The notes beneath the pieces are model-generated. The model was given only the letters and a program-made list of their open reading frames with translations, was not told the DNA's origin and made no database searches. From the IMG/VR virus record IMGVR_UViG_3300028883_000033, positions 64,001-128,000 of that record: 64,000 bases of DNA; one strand, written 5' to 3'. The translations under genes and the position numbers were made by a program. Origin of the DNA: a virus. Shown piece after piece: positions 54,260-64,000 of this stretch (positions are counted from its first letter, which is position 1; every line of letters starts with the position of its first letter).

Positions 54260-54607
54260 TCAACTTGGCCAATTGACGTCGGTTGAAGGGTCGTAAGCCT
54301 CGACCTGTGCAATTGGTACAGTCTGTACCTGATTGATCTTGTTTTTTGCATAAAGGTAAATGTCTTTTACCAGTGTGCCAGTTGCTGTTGGCGTAAATAA
54401 CGGAAAGATCATTTTCAACATCTTCACCTCCTCAAAGGTATCTACGTCTGGTAATACTGCTTGAATGCGTGTTAACGCATTAACCTTTATCTCTAATTTC
54501 TTTTCAGCACGGATACTTTCTTCCATGTCCGCTGCTATTTGAGCTAACTCCTCTGCTGTTTCTTCTACGAGTGTACTAGAGCCATCTTCATTAATTATTT
54601 GTTTCAT
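54260..54607 (-). CDS. Tail fibre assembly/chaperone-like protein
   Basis: Follows the fibre gene; E.TAEE leader and C-terminal WP; AGGAG SD. Confidence 0.55.
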   Translation of the reverse strand: MKQIINEDGSSTLVEETAEELAQIAADMEESIRAEKKLEIKVNALTRIQAVLPDVDTFEEVKMLKMIFPLFTPTATGTLVKDIYLYAKNKINQVQTVPIAQVEAYDPSTDVNWPS

Positions 54608-54618
54608 ACCATATTCTC

Positions 54619-57600
54619 CTATATTCCTGCTGTTTTAATGCCATATAAATAGTAATTTCCACTCACAAAATTGCCGCTACTCCATAGTAATTGGCAACCA
54701 TCAACCTTACCATTTTGTGGTGAAGCTATACGTTTTCCCCACATATGGGTAGCTGCTTGGGCGCTATTGAAGGCGGTCTCGTAAGAACTATACGACCACC
54801 ATGTTGATGATATACCATTTACATCAGCAGCATGGCAATGTATAACCGCATTGGTTCTGTCACCTGTATCTGTGCCTGCCCCAGTAGTTATCTGGAACGC
54901 GGTCTGGTTTGTGGAGTAAGTTGGTGCTGTCGCTACACTCTGTTCAGTATAGTCGTAAGTGGAAAGTGTTTTCACAGTACCGTTCTCTCGCGTTCTTAAC
55001 AGCAACTTAGCATTATTGGATGATGGGTGTGCATTGATTATTACGATCTTTAGCTCTGTGTAATCAGATGGGAAGGGGATAGTAATTGAAGATACTGCTC
55101 CTATCGCACCACTAGATATTACCTCCCATGCACCACCGCCACCAGATGATACTGCATCATCAACATATTTCTTATTAGGGATGTCGTCATCATCAGTAAC
55201 AAGTGTTTCATAGTCAGTTGTACCTGAAACATTTAATGTTCCATTATCCTCAATTATTAACGCTGTAGTTAAACTGCTACTAGTTTTAAAATGCAACTGT
55301 CCTTGAGTAGAACTTGCACCACGATAACTTGTGATTTCTGCCATAGAGTTGCCAGCAAGATCACGGAAGCGAATTGCAGCTTTATCAGAACTGTTTGCAT
55401 TGTTAGCACCATAAAGGTCTAACTCTCTTGCAGGACTTGCAATAGCACCTATAGCACACCTACTAGCAACGGCTATTTGCTGCGAACTATTAATTACTAA
55501 TGCTTCGGTTTTAGTACCTGTTCCAGTATAGAAGGTTGCATTGCCAGCCGATTCATCCCACTTAAAGAAGACATCAGCACCATTTCTCAACAGTAGATCG
55601 CCACCATTAGTGTGTGATGCACCATACGCAACCATATTCGCACCAGCTGCAGAACCACTTCCACCTGACAGTACTATTGCCGCATCACCATCTCTATGTA
55701 CTATAGAAAAGGTTCCACCATTACCAACATCCAATATGCTACCAGATAACTCAAACATAGGAGTCTTAGCAGCAGTACCAGTAGATATAGTTAAGGAGCC
55801 AGCTGACTCATCCCATTCAAAGAAAGGATTGTTGTTAGCTTGCAGTATGACATCATTCGCCAGCGTAGCGTGGGTGCTACCATACATGATAAGGCTTGAT
55901 GAGTTTGCTGAACTTCCTCCACTTCGAATAGTAAGAGACCCATCATTGACATACTTGTTGATGACAGTTCCACTTGCAGCGGTTAGCCCACCGACCGAGA
56001 TAATGTTATCAACAACCTGTATCATTTCAAAAGTAGCATTATCATCTATACCAATTGAAGTGAATGTTCCTGTTGATAACGAAGTGGTTACCAAATCAGG
56101 ATTAACTCTCAACCCAGCAGTTGAATTTTGCAATAATGTGCTATCAGTTTTAATATACAACTTAGCGTCTGTTCCGGTACTTGATGCGGAACCGTTTTCA
56201 GTTAATATCAAACCACCATTAGTTGCATCATATAAATCAATTCCAATCTCATCGCTCGGAAGTTCTTTAATACCGGCGCCAAGATTTGCGTTGATCGTCT
56301 CGCCGCTAATTTCTAAACCAACACCTGCTGTGATTGTACCAGGACCAGAAATAATTACCCATACGTCAGTATCATTGTGATACAAGTACGACTGACCGAA
56401 ATGAGAACAATCAGAGTTGTTACATAATACTGTAATACCGTCACGGATTTCTGGTTCCGCTGTACCGCCTGTAGAAACAACAGTTGCCTCTTCGACAGTA
56501 ACAGTTGCACCTGAAACGTTGGAAATAGTATACACACCGTTGCCAGCAGAACCACCAGCATATGTGAAAGTATTACCGACTTTCATCGAACGTGACTGAT
56601 CTGCAGCCATCGTAAAGTTGCTCGATGCATCGACAGAAGTTACAGCAAATGTAACTCCACCGGCACGACCGTGTGGGAAATCCCAGTTTGCAATCTGTCT
56701 TGGATCAGCACTAGTAGCACCAACGTAAACAGCAATGTCATCTTTGACCATACCAGAAGGAAGGGTTCCTTCGTTGTCTACAGATGCAACGTTGAACCCA
56801 ACGCCAATGCGTGTTTCGACGCCATCAATGTTACCATCAACTTCCCAGTGATAACCACCAGCACCGTCTGATGTCCAGTGAACCATGTCATATTCATTAA
56901 CTGATACACCACCAGTCCATGTTTGTGAATATGTACCACCATAAGCAATGTACATACCAGAAACGATAGGAGTTGATGGTTCTGATGAAACGATATCAAC
57001 TAAATCAGGCTGTGCAACAGGATCTTGCCATACCACACTACTTGAAACTAATGCATCAACATATGCTTTTGACGTTGCAGATGTAGCTCCTGAAGGAGTT
57101 GTAGGAAGACCGCTTACTTCACCACCACCTGTAAAGATCAAATTTGCGGCTGAATTCATAGTATCGCCAGCCTTCTCGACCCATACGTCACCAGCACCAC
57201 CTGCTTCTAACCCAGCGAGTTTTGTTTCCTCGGCAGATGTATATGATGCTGTAGTGTTTTGAAGAATCGTTGAGAATGCTTGGATTGTAGATCCGATATC
57301 AGCATCTTTGAGAATTGTGGCATCAGCTGGCTCGTAGTTGCTTGCAGCCGCTGCAATACCATTATCCACATATTGTTTGGTTGCAGCATCGTTGTTTGAT
57401 GCGGGGGCGGCAAGACCTGTGATTGATTCGCCGTTCATATTGAAACCGACCTGAACCTGGATTGGATTCGCGTCGGATGATGTCAGGTTATTTCCCGCTT
57501 GCAGTGAAAGAGTACCCTTCATTTGAATGATACCTGTTCCATCTGGCAAGAATTCAATATCTCCAGACCCTTGTGATTTTACCTGGATATTCTGATCATC

Positions 57601-57891
57601 ATCCGCAGATAGTACGATCGTTCCAGAACTCTCTTCGATAACCTTCTGGCCATTAACATATAACGATCCTGGGCCGATGAACACGTCCTGCCACATATGA
57701 GTAGCAGATCCTAGAGATCTGGTGTTATCAACATCAGGGATGATGTCCTGGCTTACCGCTGACAGATCCAACGCGTTGCTGATATCTGATATTGTTGTTT
57801 TGTAGGTAGTGCCGCCCTGGACTATTACAAGTTCTTCTGTTCCTGAAAGGGTACCGGCAGCCGGCAGCTCACTAATTTTTTTAGATGCCAT
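54619..57891 (-). CDS. Tail fibre protein
   Basis: KISELPAA N-terminus; DAATKQYVD, SKAYVD and NKKYVD motifs; duplicated YG..H...WDESAG module; C-terminal SG...LYG domain. Confidence 0.8.
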   Translation of the reverse strand: MASKKISELPAAGTLSGTEELVIVQGGTTYKTTISDISNALDLSAVSQDIIPDVDNTRSLGSATHMWQDVFIGPGSLYVNGQKVIEESSGTIVLSADDDQNIQVKSQGSGDIEFLPDGTGIIQMKGTLSLQAGNNLTSSDANPIQVQVGFNMNGESITGLAAPASNNDAATKQYVDNGIAAAASNYEPADATILKDADIGSTIQAFSTILQNTTASYTSAEETKLAGLEAGGAGDVWVEKAGDTMNSAANLIFTGGGEVSGLPTTPSGATSATSKAYVDALVSSSVVWQDPVAQPDLVDIVSSEPSTPIVSGMYIAYGGTYSQTWTGGVSVNEYDMVHWTSDGAGGYHWEVDGNIDGVETRIGVGFNVASVDNEGTLPSGMVKDDIAVYVGATSADPRQIANWDFPHGRAGGVTFAVTSVDASSNFTMAADQSRSMKVGNTFTYAGGSAGNGVYTISNVSGATVTVEEATVVSTGGTAEPEIRDGITVLCNNSDCSHFGQSYLYHNDTDVWVIISGPGTITAGVGLEISGETINANLGAGIKELPSDEIGIDLYDATNGGLILTENGSASSTGTDAKLYIKTDSTLLQNSTAGLRVNPDLVTTSLSTGTFTSIGIDDNATFEMIQVVDNIISVGGLTAASGTVINKYVNDGSLTIRSGGSSANSSSLIMYGSTHATLANDVILQANNNPFFEWDESAGSLTISTGTAAKTPMFELSGSILDVGNGGTFSIVHRDGDAAIVLSGGSGSAAGANMVAYGASHTNGGDLLLRNGADVFFKWDESAGNATFYTGTGTKTEALVINSSQQIAVASRCAIGAIASPARELDLYGANNANSSDKAAIRFRDLAGNSMAEITSYRGASSTQGQLHFKTSSSLTTALIIEDNGTLNVSGTTDYETLVTDDDDIPNKKYVDDAVSSGGGGAWEVISSGAIGAVSSITIPFPSDYTELKIVIINAHPSSNNAKLLLRTRENGTVKTLSTYDYTEQSVATAPTYSTNQTAFQITTGAGTDTGDRTNAVIHCHAADVNGISSTWWSYSSYETAFNSAQAATHMWGKRIASPQNGKVDGCQLLWSSGNFVSGNYYLYGIKTAGI

Positions 57892-58141: not shown

Positions 58142-58807
58142 TTATACCTTTCTGCTGCTGCTTTTTTTCTTAGCAACTCGTTTTTTGCGTGGTGTTTTTG
58201 GTTTGTGATCGACGCCTTCAGCAGCTGCTTTTTCTTCAGCTTCCTGTTCCGCTATCATGATCTCAACCATATTAACAAGCCTTTCGCGGATTTCTGGGGG
58301 ATGCATATAAACATCCGCTCCAGCAATCACCCTATCAACTTCCTCTTCGGAAAGGAATGGGATGTACATTCGATGCATAAAATCACGCGACCATGTTGTT
58401 GCAGATTCAAGTGCAGCGATTTGCTCATGTCCCTTTCCAAACACCCCACCGGAATAGTTGTGGATCATCATTGAACTATTGTCATGGACAATAAATTCAT
58501 CTGCAGCAAGGAAAATAAAAGTTCCCATCGACGACACCTCGCCTTCGATTGAGGCGATGACGTGAGCGTTGGACGACTTCATTGCGTTTATGATTTGAAT
58601 TCCGGCGTCCATATACCCACCAACGGTGTTCAAATGCATAAAAATTACATCATCAGGTCCAGCAGTTTGGATCCTGAAAACCATGTCCGTATACTTCAGA
58701 GCTTCTTCGATTAAACTGCTGACGTAGAAGTGGTGAACGGTTCGAACAATCTGTTGTTGCTTGTATGCGTAAGGTAAGTATTCCAGCTCGTCGTCTTTTT
58801 CTGCCAT
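58142..58807 (-). CDS. clpP: ClpP-like serine protease (S14)
   Basis: LNT.GG...AG..I, catalytic Ser in SSMG, MIH His, D.YM; basic C-terminal tail. Confidence 0.85.
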   Translation of the reverse strand: MAEKDDELEYLPYAYKQQQIVRTVHHFYVSSLIEEALKYTDMVFRIQTAGPDDVIFMHLNTVGGYMDAGIQIINAMKSSNAHVIASIEGEVSSMGTFIFLAADEFIVHDNSSMMIHNYSGGVFGKGHEQIAALESATTWSRDFMHRMYIPFLSEEEVDRVIAGADVYMHPPEIRERLVNMVEIMIAEQEAEEKAAAEGVDHKPKTPRKKRVAKKKSSSRKV

Positions 58808-58811
58808 GTGA

Positions 58812-58952
58812 TTATTCTTCTGTGTTGGTTTTGCCTGTGAAGGCTTTCCACTTATTTACGATCCAATCTTGTACCCATTTTGCATAGAAAGGTTGAGGGA
58901 AATTCCATCCAATAAAGGCGCCAACTGCAATCCAGAATAGTGTGTCTAACAT
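58812..58952 (-). CDS. Small membrane protein (46 aa)
   Basis: MLDTLFWIAVGAFIGWNFPQP; AGGAG SD 7 nt upstream; CATAAATA at 58982-58989. Confidence 0.65.
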   Translation of the reverse strand: MLDTLFWIAVGAFIGWNFPQPFYAKWVQDWIVNKWKAFTGKTNTEE

Positions 58953-58995
58953 TATCATTCTCCTGTGTTGATTGTGTGTATTATTTATGGAAAAC

Positions 58996-59022
58996 AAAAG
59001 AGGCGCCGAAGCGCCTCTTTTT
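58996..59022. terminator. Terminator ending the tmRNA transcript
   Basis: On the - strand AAAAAGAGGCGC-TTCG-GCGCCTCTTTT. Confidence 0.9.
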
Positions 59023-59333
59023 ACGGTTTGTTAACAAGGCCTATTTGCCCCGTACGCGACTGTTTCTTAGGCAGCCATTGCGTAGTCGTAGTAATCGTCG
59101 TTTGCGTTTACTTTAATTTGTGCTGATTACGTCAGTCACCTGTCGATCATCTCGTCTCATCTTCGCCCGCCCCGTCGAAACTGGTTCGGGCCCATCAAAA
59201 GTCCTCTCGGCGGTATAAGGAAATGAAATGCTCACATTTCCCCAGTGTCCGGAGCATCGGAGTAGGACTTTTGGTGGACCCGGCCGGCACTGCCCCGGCG
59301 TCCGCAACGTCTCCAACTTGAGTCATCAACGAT
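59023..59333 (-). ncRNA. ssrA: Circularly permuted (two-piece) tmRNA; tag ANDDYYDYAMAA
   Basis: Acceptor piece ends GGAC-GCCGG-GGCAGTG-CCGGC-CGGGTCC-A-CCA (CCA end 59272). A 78-nt intervening segment follows. The coding piece starts GGGCCCG (59193), pairing 7/7 with G3:U70, followed by ..TTCGAC. Tag reading frame 59105-59067. Outer ends are approximate. Confidence 0.93.
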
Positions 59334-59338
59334 AGTGT

Positions 59339-59369
59339 TATTTATACGCGAACTGCGTTAAAAATTCAA
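59339..59369 (-). promoter_or_regulatory. Composite sigma70/late promoter of the tmRNA
   Basis: TTGAAT-17-TATAAA(TA). Confidence 0.75.
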
Positions 59370-59374
59370 CAGGT

Positions 59375-59731
59375 TCAATATCCGTTGTGGAGGCAAGCTG
59401 CTATTTCCTGTATAGCCTCTTCCTCGGCCGCTTCTAGTGAGATTGGGTCCTCACGGTAAGCATCACGGACGATTCGCTGCATGTCAATATACGTAGCTCG
59501 TTTGATCCCTTTTAGGGAATAAGATTCCTTCCAATCCCGTTCAAGAACTTGTAGAGCCTTTTCTAGTGGAATCTTATCGCGGTATTGTTGTGTGAACAGT
59601 ACAGCATCTCCTTTGGCGAAACATGCAGGAGGGATGATAATGTTTCCGTTTTCATCCGTAGGGTACGCAAATACTGTTGAGGTTATTAGCAGTAAACTAG
59701 CTAGCGTCCAAATCTTCACTGTACTCTCCAA
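59375..59731 (-). CDS. Exported hypothetical protein
   Basis: Signal peptide ending VFA; two Cys. Confidence 0.6.
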   Translation of the reverse strand: MESTVKIWTLASLLLITSTVFAYPTDENGNIIIPPACFAKGDAVLFTQQYRDKIPLEKALQVLERDWKESYSLKGIKRATYIDMQRIVRDAYREDPISLEAAEEEAIQEIAACLHNGY

Positions 59732-60158
59732 TGATCTTAATCTTACTTTTGAACTCAGGCAAAGACTCTAAGTCGATATCTTTTGCGTCGTATGATAATG
59801 TGACGTGGGGCTCATACAAATCAAAGTCATATGTAGCTCCGTGCTGCTGCATCAGTTTGTGGTGGCGTTGATACAATTGCGGACAAGAAAATTTCACAAC
59901 AAGCGCATTCTTTTCGGGGCCAAATAAGTCTAGTCCTATTGGCGTACCTATAAATGGTTTTGTGTATTTTTCGATTGGTTGATAGTTTGGCAGGTGTTTT
60001 CTGCTATAGAGCAGGGTGGCATGCCAGTTATCATAATCACCAGCGACGCCAACCTTTTCGGCAAACTTCTTTAGTGCGTTGATTGTGCGTTTATCGAAAC
60101 GGACCGCTGCGTAGGTCCCCGGTTCGCCCTCTTTCTCTATAACTTCGCTCAGTTTCAT
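59697..60158 (-). CDS. acb1: Anti-CBASS nuclease Acb1 (T4 gp57B-like 2H phosphoesterase)
   Basis: GTYAAV.F, HATLLYSR, GATYDF..Y.PHVTLSY, E..E.LD. Confidence 0.88.
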   Translation of the reverse strand: MKLSEVIEKEGEPGTYAAVRFDKRTINALKKFAEKVGVAGDYDNWHATLLYSRKHLPNYQPIEKYTKPFIGTPIGLDLFGPEKNALVVKFSCPQLYQRHHKLMQQHGATYDFDLYEPHVTLSYDAKDIDLESLPEFKSKIKIIGEYSEDLDAS

Positions 60159-62907: not shown

Positions 62908-63103
62908 CTACTATTTCATAAAGCTCGTCTTTACGAACCCACTTTTTCCATGAACCATCTTCGTTGTTGGTAGGCGTAATCTCATACAAGATATCTATGC
63001 GTCTTACGGTTCGCCCGCTCCTGGTGGCCACAGAATTTCCTTCCTTCCTGGCCGTTCGTCCGGTCATCATGACCTCAGAACCATTCCACACATATGCCGT
63101 CAT
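62813..63103 (-). CDS. Hypothetical protein, paralog of 62623-62907
   Basis: EVMMTGRTA ... WVR.DELYEI. Confidence 0.65.
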   Translation of the reverse strand: MTAYVWNGSEVMMTGRTARKEGNSVATRSGRTVRRIDILYEITPTNNEDGSWKKWVRKDELYEIVDEPKSDNDGTAPKENISLGEEGSDADREDGQ

Positions 63104-63897
63104 AACATCCCCTCAATATATCTACGGTCTTTGGTGAATATTGGGATTTCTTCATCAATCACAATACGGCTTCGTTCGACAGTCTCAACATCTGTTACAA
63201 GCGATTGATCGCCATCAACGTACCTCCAATCAGTCGCAATGAGTTCTGTTTTGCGAACAACACAAGTTCCACGCTTCTTCCAAGTATCCATATCATTCCA
63301 GTTCACGCCCTTTTCCAACATGAGCATGTCTTGAATCTGACTATTGTTTTTCTTGTGAAGTTCCTTGTGTGAGAAATACTCACGACCCAGCATTTGGACG
63401 CTATTGCGGGAGGCGTCTTGTTGGCGCCAGATGAAGTAGTTAACCACCTCCTCTCGAGGAATGTTGAAAACCCGCGCGTCGAAGAATGCTGTTTCGTGAA
63501 GGAAATTTACTTGACTTTCGGCGTGACTGTCGCAGTGCGTATGATACAGCGCGTTGAAATACCCAGTAGCCAAGCTGGCAGATACTGATGCCATTTTCTG
63601 AACCGCACCGCCGAACCATTGATCGGTTTCTAACGTTTTCCAGTCATTCAATAGAATAGAAATTTCGTCAGACTGTGTGTATCCGAGTACGGCGTTCTGT
63701 ACGCTGCTGCAGAGTAGCTCGGTTGTTCCGACCATCAGCTCGTGCATCGTGTCGTTGAACGATCCGTGGAACCGTTTGGTGAACGTGTGGAAAGCCTTCC
63801 CGTCGATCCTAATAATGACAGGAGTTCGACGAAGCAATTTAGTCTTTGAAGTCGCTTCGTATTGTTTCATACGATCGCCAAGAGTTGTCTTATCCAC
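63100..63897 (-). CDS. Thg1-like tRNA(His) guanylyltransferase / 3'-5' polymerase
   Basis: RMK.YE, RIDGKAFH.FT, YTQSDEIS, FDAR, WRQ.D..RN; GTG 63897 with AGGAG SD. Confidence 0.92.
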   Translation of the reverse strand: MDKTTLGDRMKQYEATSKTKLLRRTPVIIRIDGKAFHTFTKRFHGSFNDTMHELMVGTTELLCSSVQNAVLGYTQSDEISILLNDWKTLETDQWFGGAVQKMASVSASLATGYFNALYHTHCDSHAESQVNFLHETAFFDARVFNIPREEVVNYFIWRQQDASRNSVQMLGREYFSHKELHKKNNSQIQDMLMLEKGVNWNDMDTWKKRGTCVVRKTELIATDWRYVDGDQSLVTDVETVERSRIVIDEEIPIFTKDRRYIEGML

Positions 63898-64000
63898 CCA
63901 GGAATCTCCTAAACCATGATTTCTTTGCAATGTCGCTCATGACACCTTCACTGATCTGAATACCTCTCCGTTCCCCCTGAATCGTACTCAGTATAAGTTG
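63890..64000 (-). CDS. 3' end of a hypothetical protein
   Basis: Open frame from the window edge: QLILSTIQGERRGIQ...KKSWFRRFLGG*. Confidence 0.5.
   Translation of the reverse strand, partial: QLILSTIQGERRGIQISEGVMSDIAKKSWFRRFLGG

Follow-up and report, generated by a model that had tools for sequence, protein, structure and literature searches.

Transfer-messenger RNA (tmRNA) genes of the one-piece type have been catalogued in phages since at least 2014 (PMC4131195), and phage two-piece forms were published in 2022, when Methylophilales phage Melnitz was found to carry one and a count across phage genomes, mostly marine, gave 53 unique two-piece forms (PMC9004378). The gene described here lies in IMG/VR virus record IMGVR_UViG_3300028883_000033, of which positions 64,001 to 128,000 were analyzed as a window of 64,000 nucleotides; coordinates below are those of the window unless another source is named. 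Positions 58995-59382 on the minus strand very probably constitute a functional two-piece tmRNA (ssrA) gene, circularly permuted and encoded by a T4-related jumbo phage, as judged from sequence, predicted structure and conservation. Phage permuted tmRNA genes are already known, and the window gene adds one member; the novelty implied by an earlier note, which recognized the gene from the letters of the window, was overstated in view of the two-piece forms already published (PMC9004378).

Among the described systems, the genes of Melnitz and of Pelagibacter phage Mosig resemble the window gene in being permuted, tag-bearing tmRNA genes of lytic T4-type phages for which no phage SmpB is reported, and their proposed role is the upkeep of the hijacked translation machinery or the recycling of proteins (PMC9004378). 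However, genes of the Melnitz/Mosig type are alpha-type and follow an early promoter, some of them with a glutamine riboswitch, whereas the window gene scores best as beta-type, has no riboswitch and carries an exact T4 late box together with a -35-like box. It also has a ClpP-like gene as its neighbor and belongs to a soil or jumbo-type lineage, for which rhizobiophages, at approximately 35-37% protein identity, are the closest relatives in culture. For Sinorhizobium jumbo phage AP-J-162, Clp genes are reported along with a tmRNA and a CUA-anticodon tRNA (PMC11242549), and this combination of tmRNA, CUA-anticodon tRNA and Clp-family genes in a T4-type jumbo phage is shared by Sinorhizobium phage Phosso (L062, PV764938.1, 469 kb, cultured) and by the phage studied here. 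The permuted tmRNA of Phosso (113 bits) was located at 349596-350198 on the minus strand, in an unannotated gap between coding sequences 479 and 480; the match spans approximately 600 nt, which implies an unusually long intervening segment. In contrast to the window gene, it does not adjoin a ClpP gene, and the Phosso genome encodes ClpX, which the window's record lacks; proteins of the two phages are approximately 35% identical. Other phage trans-translation RNAs, namely the one-piece tmRNAs of Bxz1-group mycobacteriophages and Bacillus phage G and the tRNA-like-domain (TLD)-only molecule of DS6A (PMC4131195), have the standard order or lack a tag, whereas the window gene is permuted and has a full tag.

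The identification is carried by Rfam covariance models run on the minus strand of the window. Model RF04321 (tmRNA_permuted) gives 127.6 bits against a gathering threshold of 47 (E 1.3e-24), with approximately 28 of its 31 model base pairs canonical in the window gene, and RF01850 (beta_tmRNA) gives 110.2 bits against 84 (E 1.2e-32), in a match running from 59382 to 58995 that includes the promoter and terminator columns. Scored separately, RF01849 (alpha_tmRNA) reaches 75 bits against a gathering threshold of 50, and the cyano_tmRNA model gives 20.5 bits for the window gene, under its cut-off. The match to all elements of a permuted tmRNA, together with these scores, is far beyond chance. 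ARAGORN makes no tmRNA call in the window at its default threshold, and the check by ARAGORN -m that the earlier note proposed misses the gene at default settings. At the 95% threshold (-ps) the program makes a single permuted-tmRNA call in the 147.6-kb record, with a tag identical to ANDDYYDYAMAA; at -ps80 it returns 34 calls, mostly spurious, and the 95% setting alone is informative. A blastn search of the 601-nt tmRNA region against 50,697 phage records returned no match. The parts of the gene are as follows.

59369-59364, minus strand: -35-like box TTGAAT, with a 17-nt spacer to the -10 box; aligned to the RF01850 promoter columns.
59346-59339, minus strand: -10 box TATAAATA, which equals the T4 late-promoter consensus exactly and ends 5 nt before the first structured RNA base.
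59333-59272, minus strand: acceptor piece of 62 nt, covering RF04321 model positions 1-62 and carrying the 5' strands of helix P2.
59299-59283, minus strand: T-arm with a 5-bp stem and the 7-nt loop GGCAGUG.
59282-59276, minus strand: 3' acceptor strand, followed by A73 (59275) and the encoded CCA (59274-59272).
59271-59194, minus strand: intervening segment of 78 nt, predicted to be removed in processing and closed by a 9-bp helix.
59193-58995, minus strand: coding piece, from the RF04321 and RF01850 alignments and the ARAGORN -ps call.
59193-59187, minus strand: 5' acceptor strand, forming a perfect 7-bp acceptor stem with 59282-59276, including G3:U70.
Within the coding piece, minus strand: D-region AGUUUCGAC, which aligns to the Rfam model.
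59145-59130, minus strand: hairpin at the position of pseudoknot pk1, within the coding piece.
59105-59067, minus strand: tag reading frame with resume codon GCA at 59105, 12 codons and stop TAA; tag ANDDYYDYAMAA, end AMAA.
59021-58996, minus strand: intrinsic terminator with an 11-bp stem, UUCG loop and T tail, from a terminator scan; aligned to the RF01850 terminator hairpin.
59113-59316, minus strand: spurious open reading frame (ORF) of 67 aa, wholly within the RNA gene.

The order of the gene is permuted, with the CCA end at 59272 lying upstream of G1 at 59193 on the minus strand, and the ARAGORN label is likewise permuted. Within the coding piece, the 5' acceptor strand is followed by the D-region, the 3' strands of P2, the hairpin at the pk1 position, the tag frame, a 3' hairpin and the terminator. 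The alanine identity set is complete, comprising the 7-bp acceptor stem, G3:U70, discriminator A73 and the 3' CCA, and helix P2 joins the two pieces through paired outer, middle and inner segments. The intervening segment folds with its closing helix at -23 kcal/mol (z -2.2), the AAAAG/CTTTT closure recurs among beta-like viral copies, and the 3' hairpin and terminator form a strong local fold (z -4.0). The tag frame is given by both the ARAGORN -ps call and the Rfam model alignment. The central proposal of the earlier note, a complete permuted two-piece tmRNA gene with its own promoter and terminator, is thus borne out by the Rfam matches and by all elements read on the minus strand, and its CCA end (59272), coding start (59193), 78-nt intervening segment, 12-codon tag and UUCG terminator were all reproduced. 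It was also right to call the 67-aa ORF spurious, since this frame lies inside the RNA gene and shows no protein-level conservation among relatives, except via DNA identity with related contig L038.

Conservation in related viral contigs provides evidence for function. A search with the ClpP-like protein encoded directly downstream of the tmRNA gene recovered 11 related viral loci (a search with the Acb1-like protein gave one weak match only). The five loci with the closest ClpP-like protein carry a permuted tmRNA (109-136 bits) directly upstream of the ClpP-like gene, and the six more distant loci do not. Identity of the ClpP-like protein to that of the window is 50-65% in the search and 46-68% in full alignment across the five contigs, that of the topoisomerase is 66-88%, and the block of ThyA, a small ORF, DHFR, Acb1-like, tmRNA, ClpP-like, primase and topoisomerase genes is syntenic in all five. 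The RNAs of the clade formed by the window and these contigs have diverged to approximately 54% mean column identity, and their helices are maintained by compensatory changes: acceptor-stem positions 4-6 read CCC/GGG, GTT/AAC, CCT/AGG or GAT/ATC, the outer P2 helix reads AUCGU/AUGAU, GUCGC/GCGGC, AGUUG/CAACU or CAUUG/CAAUG, the middle and inner P2 segments switch too, and the T stem co-varies among the relatives. G3:U70 is constant across the clade. These helices were tabulated from structure-aware Rfam alignments; in a MAFFT alignment, 1-nt differences in T-loop length shift the acceptor columns. The clade tags are all in frame, starting with AND and ending in A[L/M]AA, with a variable middle. 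The compensatory changes, the in-frame tags and the retained slot indicate purifying selection on a functional tmRNA, in agreement with the earlier description of a functional phage gene rather than an integration scar.

At the pk1 position, a 4-bp hairpin recurs in the clade; the sequence of its 8-nt loop is conserved, and its third pair is A.A in the window and in L038. The 7-bp hairpin proposed there previously can form in these same two sequences (-6.3 kcal/mol); however, its z-score is -0.8, it competes with the 4-bp hairpin and it is absent from the other clade members. As far as the sequence allows, a pk1 reduced to a hairpin is possible. As for the tag, the unrelated viral contig L029 carries an alpha-typed tmRNA at 1165-1458 on its minus strand, with TATAAATA 15 nt upstream and the tag ANDDFYDYAMAA, which is one residue off the window tag; this near-identity suggests exchange or convergence of tag sequences among phage tmRNAs.

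Several observations weigh against the identification as a functional tmRNA gene. Three model pairs are non-canonical in the window gene, two of them in P2, and the T-loop GGCAGUG departs from the canonical UUCGAWU, which several clade members have. A conserved second pk1 stem was sought across the clade and none common to its members was found, leaving no demonstrable pseudoknot. In addition, the record is approximately 43% complete, which limits the negative results for cofactors: SmpB was not found in the record, in a relative that is 84% complete or in the Phosso genome, which is complete at 469 kb, and a ClpX-type ATPase (AAA_2) was found in neither the record nor the 84%-complete relative, but in Phosso only. 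SspB was likewise not found in the record, the 84%-complete relative or Phosso. With no phage SmpB found, the RNA would have to use host SmpB and host alanyl-tRNA synthetase (AlaRS).

The subtype of the gene is mixed. With the betaproteobacterial model RF01850 it shares the best subtype score, the D-region GUUUCGAC, the tag end AMAA, the single post-tag hairpin, the terminator and the aligned promoter columns. However, its T-loop GGCAGUG differs from the model loop UUCGAUU, its intervening segment is 78 nt where the model has approximately 23, and it resides in a phage and not in a bacterial chromosome. With the alphaproteobacterial model RF01849 (Caulobacter type) it shares the permuted order, a score above gathering and a GGCRGUR-type T-loop, which is near the Rfam alpha_tmRNA consensus GGCgGUA, but its D-region GUUUCGAC differs from the GGAUCGAC of the alpha type and its alpha score falls below its beta score. 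The attribution of a GGCRGUA-type T-loop to Alphaproteobacteria, made in the earlier note, is consistent with that consensus; the gene as a whole is mosaic and scores 110 bits as beta against 75 as alpha. Moreover, the best Rfam model flips between alpha and beta among clade members, some of which have fully canonical T-loops. Membership in the RF01850 lineage was not assigned because of the non-beta T-loop and because close relatives flip to the alpha model; on its sequence features the gene is mosaic, or beta-like, and is placed in neither bacterial lineage.

A pattern search with the T-arm and acceptor sequence recovered 25 further viral contigs. Of the 26 sequences thus available (the 25 contigs and the window), 21 have a partner strand of perfect complementarity 26-182 nt downstream, and G3:U70 is kept in 21 of 21. 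Because intervening segments range over 26-182 nt in these viral copies, the 78 nt of the window gene is ordinary for phage copies. A search of 185,579 species genomes with the exact T-arm pattern gave 8 contigs, all of them with one-piece tmRNAs of metagenome-assembled genomes from the candidate phyla radiation and Elusimicrobia, and no close bacterial copy of the tRNA-like domain and no obvious donor or host was found in that set. The idea that the T-loop signature is phage-specific (25 viral against 8 bacterial contigs) was rejected: the pattern fixed the last loop base as G, the sole difference from the alpha consensus, and the 8 bacterial matches are genuine. The 25 viral loci share no flanking genes with the window except a Thg1-like gene in contig L023, and thus give no synteny information. 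The window copy of this gene, a Thg1-like tRNA-His guanylyltransferase (phrog_4717, 1.2e-92), lies at 63100-63930 on the minus strand, 4 kb from the tmRNA, and the homologue at 3359-4138 of L023 lies near the one-piece tmRNA of that unrelated viral contig.

In the promoter region, all six clade tmRNAs share an unchanged TATAAATA, 5-13 nt ahead of the first paired base, and the box stands at equal distance in four unrelated viral tmRNA loci too. Most copies also have a TTGAxx box 17 nt upstream of TATAAATA, and several of these boxes match TTGACA perfectly. In the window, TATAAATA occurs three times against 2.35 expected, which is no enrichment, and a late-promoter role was at first discounted on that ground; this judgement was reversed by the positions of the box in the whole record, by the late sigma gene and by the clade invariance. 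Six of the eight copies in the record are intergenic, five of these lying 20-65 nt upstream of a correctly oriented ORF start and the sixth being the tmRNA box. The tail sheath gene has a copy 53 nt ahead of it, a further copy precedes an ORF that is flanked, in the head-gene block, by the genes for the prohead protease and the major head protein, and the record encodes a gp55-type late sigma factor (phrog_234, 3e-29). These findings favor the connection to the phage late program that had been proposed, but not an expression confined to it, since the conserved -35-like TTGAxx box means that expression need not be solely late. Judged by the box sequences, early expression by host sigma-70 polymerase is equally plausible. 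Elsewhere in the record, past the window end, two overlapping TATAAATA boxes on opposite strands lie at genome positions 129095-129106 (window numbering 65095-65106; L054) between divergent ORFs, which start 20 and 28 nt from the boxes and have no family match; from its sequence, this pair could be a bidirectional late promoter.

A possible course of events can be derived from established tmRNA biology. A precursor of approximately 340 nt would begin approximately 5 nt past TATAAATA, a box that could serve both phage gp55 late polymerase and, in combination with the -35-like box, host sigma-70 polymerase, and would end at the UUCG terminator. Host tRNA-processing enzymes would then act on it, with RNase P cutting at G1 (59193) and trimming proceeding to the encoded CCA (59272), so that the 78-nt intervening hairpin would be lost and the 62-nt acceptor piece and the coding piece would be held together by the acceptor stem and helix P2. 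Host AlaRS is expected to charge the RNA via G3:U70 and A73, and host SmpB to bring the charged tmRNA to ribosomes stalled on broken mRNAs. Translation would restart at GCA 59105, adding AANDDYYDYAMAA, and the A-M-A-A end would send the tagged product to Clp-type proteolysis. The phage may benefit because ribosomes would be kept free and amino acids recycled while host and phage mRNAs are cut in infection.

The record that carries the gene comprises 147,644 bases and is 43% complete according to CheckV, from which the full genome probably exceeds 300 kb. Genes flanking the tmRNA encode a topoisomerase II large subunit, a primase, thymidylate synthase, DHFR, the Thg1-like enzyme, an Acb1-type phosphodiesterase that counters CBASS defense and the ClpP-like protease, and no integrase was found near the tmRNA among these flanking phage genes. 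Elsewhere the record encodes a tail sheath, a gp21-type prohead protease, a major head protein and the gp55-type sigma factor, which together identify a T4-related jumbo phage. Its proteins are less than 40% identical to those of any cultured phage; its topoisomerase is matched best by T4-type rhizobiophages and jumbo phages, Phosso among them. Outside the window, genome positions 139716-139791 (minus strand; L055) encode a CUA-anticodon tRNA of amber-suppressor type, labelled Pyl by ARAGORN, and a tRNA-Pro(UGG) lies at genome positions 142125-142201. The following features surround the tmRNA gene.

59697-60158, minus strand: Acb1-type anti-CBASS 2H phosphodiesterase, 153 aa (Pfam PF23474, 9.2e-31; PHROGs label 'RNA ligase').
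59375-59731, minus strand: ORF of 118 aa, directly upstream of the tmRNA promoter.
58812-58997, minus strand: small ORF of at most 61 aa between the terminator and the ClpP-like gene, with no family match.
58142-58807, minus strand: ClpP-family serine protease gene, directly downstream of the tmRNA (phrog_1827, 1.2e-56; Pfam CLP_protease, 3.9e-13; PDB ClpP matches, 3e-8).
54260-57891, minus strand: ORFs of 1090 aa and 115 aa between the ClpP-like gene and the primase, with no PHROG or Pfam match.

The Acb1-like gene is kept just upstream of the tmRNA in four related contigs (L039, L040, L041 and L044). The 118-aa ORF has no family match and is missing from the related contigs, in which the tmRNA directly adjoins the Acb1-like gene, and the small ORF at 58812-58997 is conserved in L038 only (63% identity). 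The ORFs at 54260-57891 represent a lineage-specific insertion, as the primase directly follows ClpP in the five related contigs.

The ClpP-like neighbor raises the question of whether the two genes are functionally coupled, with the tmRNA supplying a phage tag and the adjacent protease degrading the product with a host unfoldase, as a phage-autonomous tag-and-degrade module. Such coupling is conceivable but rather unlikely. In the window as in the five related contigs, the ClpP-like gene immediately follows the tmRNA in the same orientation, residues Ser93, His116 and Asp165 of the triad are invariant in relatives, and the protein is distinct from the head-maturation protease, which is a separate gp21-type enzyme in the head-gene block. 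The spacing of the triad, compared by E. coli numbering, is like that of ClpP. In addition, G004 has both a tmRNA and a ClpP-like gene, though apart. No published description of a tmRNA-ClpP pairing, and no published report of ClpP adjacency or of a late-promoter box on phage tmRNA genes, was found, although a literature search cannot prove absence. However, the adjacency falls within the larger inherited block from ThyA to topoisomerase, so that descent alone can explain it, and it is clade-specific: in L042 and L043, of the next clade out, DHFR and ClpP are direct neighbors and the tmRNA has another location, and in only one of the 25 unrelated tmRNA-bearing viral loci does the fetched stretch contain a ClpP-like ORF, 9 kb away. 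Furthermore, a terminator stands between the tmRNA and the ClpP-like gene, and neither ClpX nor SspB was found in the record.

A bolder proposal builds on the same neighbors and is doubtful. It holds that the tmRNA and the intact-triad ClpP-like protease might form a phage-owned tag-and-degrade system under a dual host-type/T4-late promoter, in which the phage would encode both the degradation tag and the proteolytic chamber and depend on the host for nothing but SmpB, AlaRS and an unfoldase. In its wider version, T4-type jumbo phages would keep their own mosaic permuted-tmRNA lineage, neither alpha nor beta, and could have moved the permuted form between bacterial groups.

It is improbable that the RNA acts instead as a competitor or decoy, titrating host SmpB or displacing host tmRNA and thereby disabling or redirecting host quality control. 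Such a role would suit a phage in which no SmpB gene was found, and it has a precedent in the TLD-only molecule of mycobacteriophage DS6A, reported to inhibit host tmRNA (PMC4131195, PMC11915505). Yet the window gene keeps a full mRNA-like domain, and all clade members retain, in frame, the tag sequence with its resume codon, stop and A[L/M]AA end, which would be needless for a pure decoy. A passenger without a phage role, whether an attachment-site remnant, a recently captured host ssrA or mis-binned bacterial DNA, is highly improbable: although temperate elements are reported to integrate often into ssrA and to carry fragments of it (PMC4383910), and imprecise excision has been discussed as a source of phage tmRNA fragments (PMC9004378), both halves of the window gene are complete with promoter and terminator, the flanking genes serve replication and nucleotide metabolism in a T4-type lytic phage and include no integrase, the slot has been held while flanking proteins diverged to approximately 50% identity, and the 185,579 species genomes contain no close bacterial copy of the tRNA-like domain.

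Collectively, a functional phage tmRNA gene at this locus represents a further well-documented case of a large lytic phage with its own ribosome-rescue RNA, and it leaves known tmRNA biology unchanged. Phage tmRNAs are under-counted, since default ARAGORN misses such genes and GenBank records of jumbo phages, such as that of Phosso, leave them unannotated. The recurrence of an exact late box and a host-type -35 box on tmRNA genes of T4-type phages makes the timing of their expression a testable question. In addition, the presence of an active-looking, non-head ClpP-family protease beside the tmRNA in one clade raises the testable hypothesis that phage manipulation of trans-translation extends to degradation as well as to tagging.

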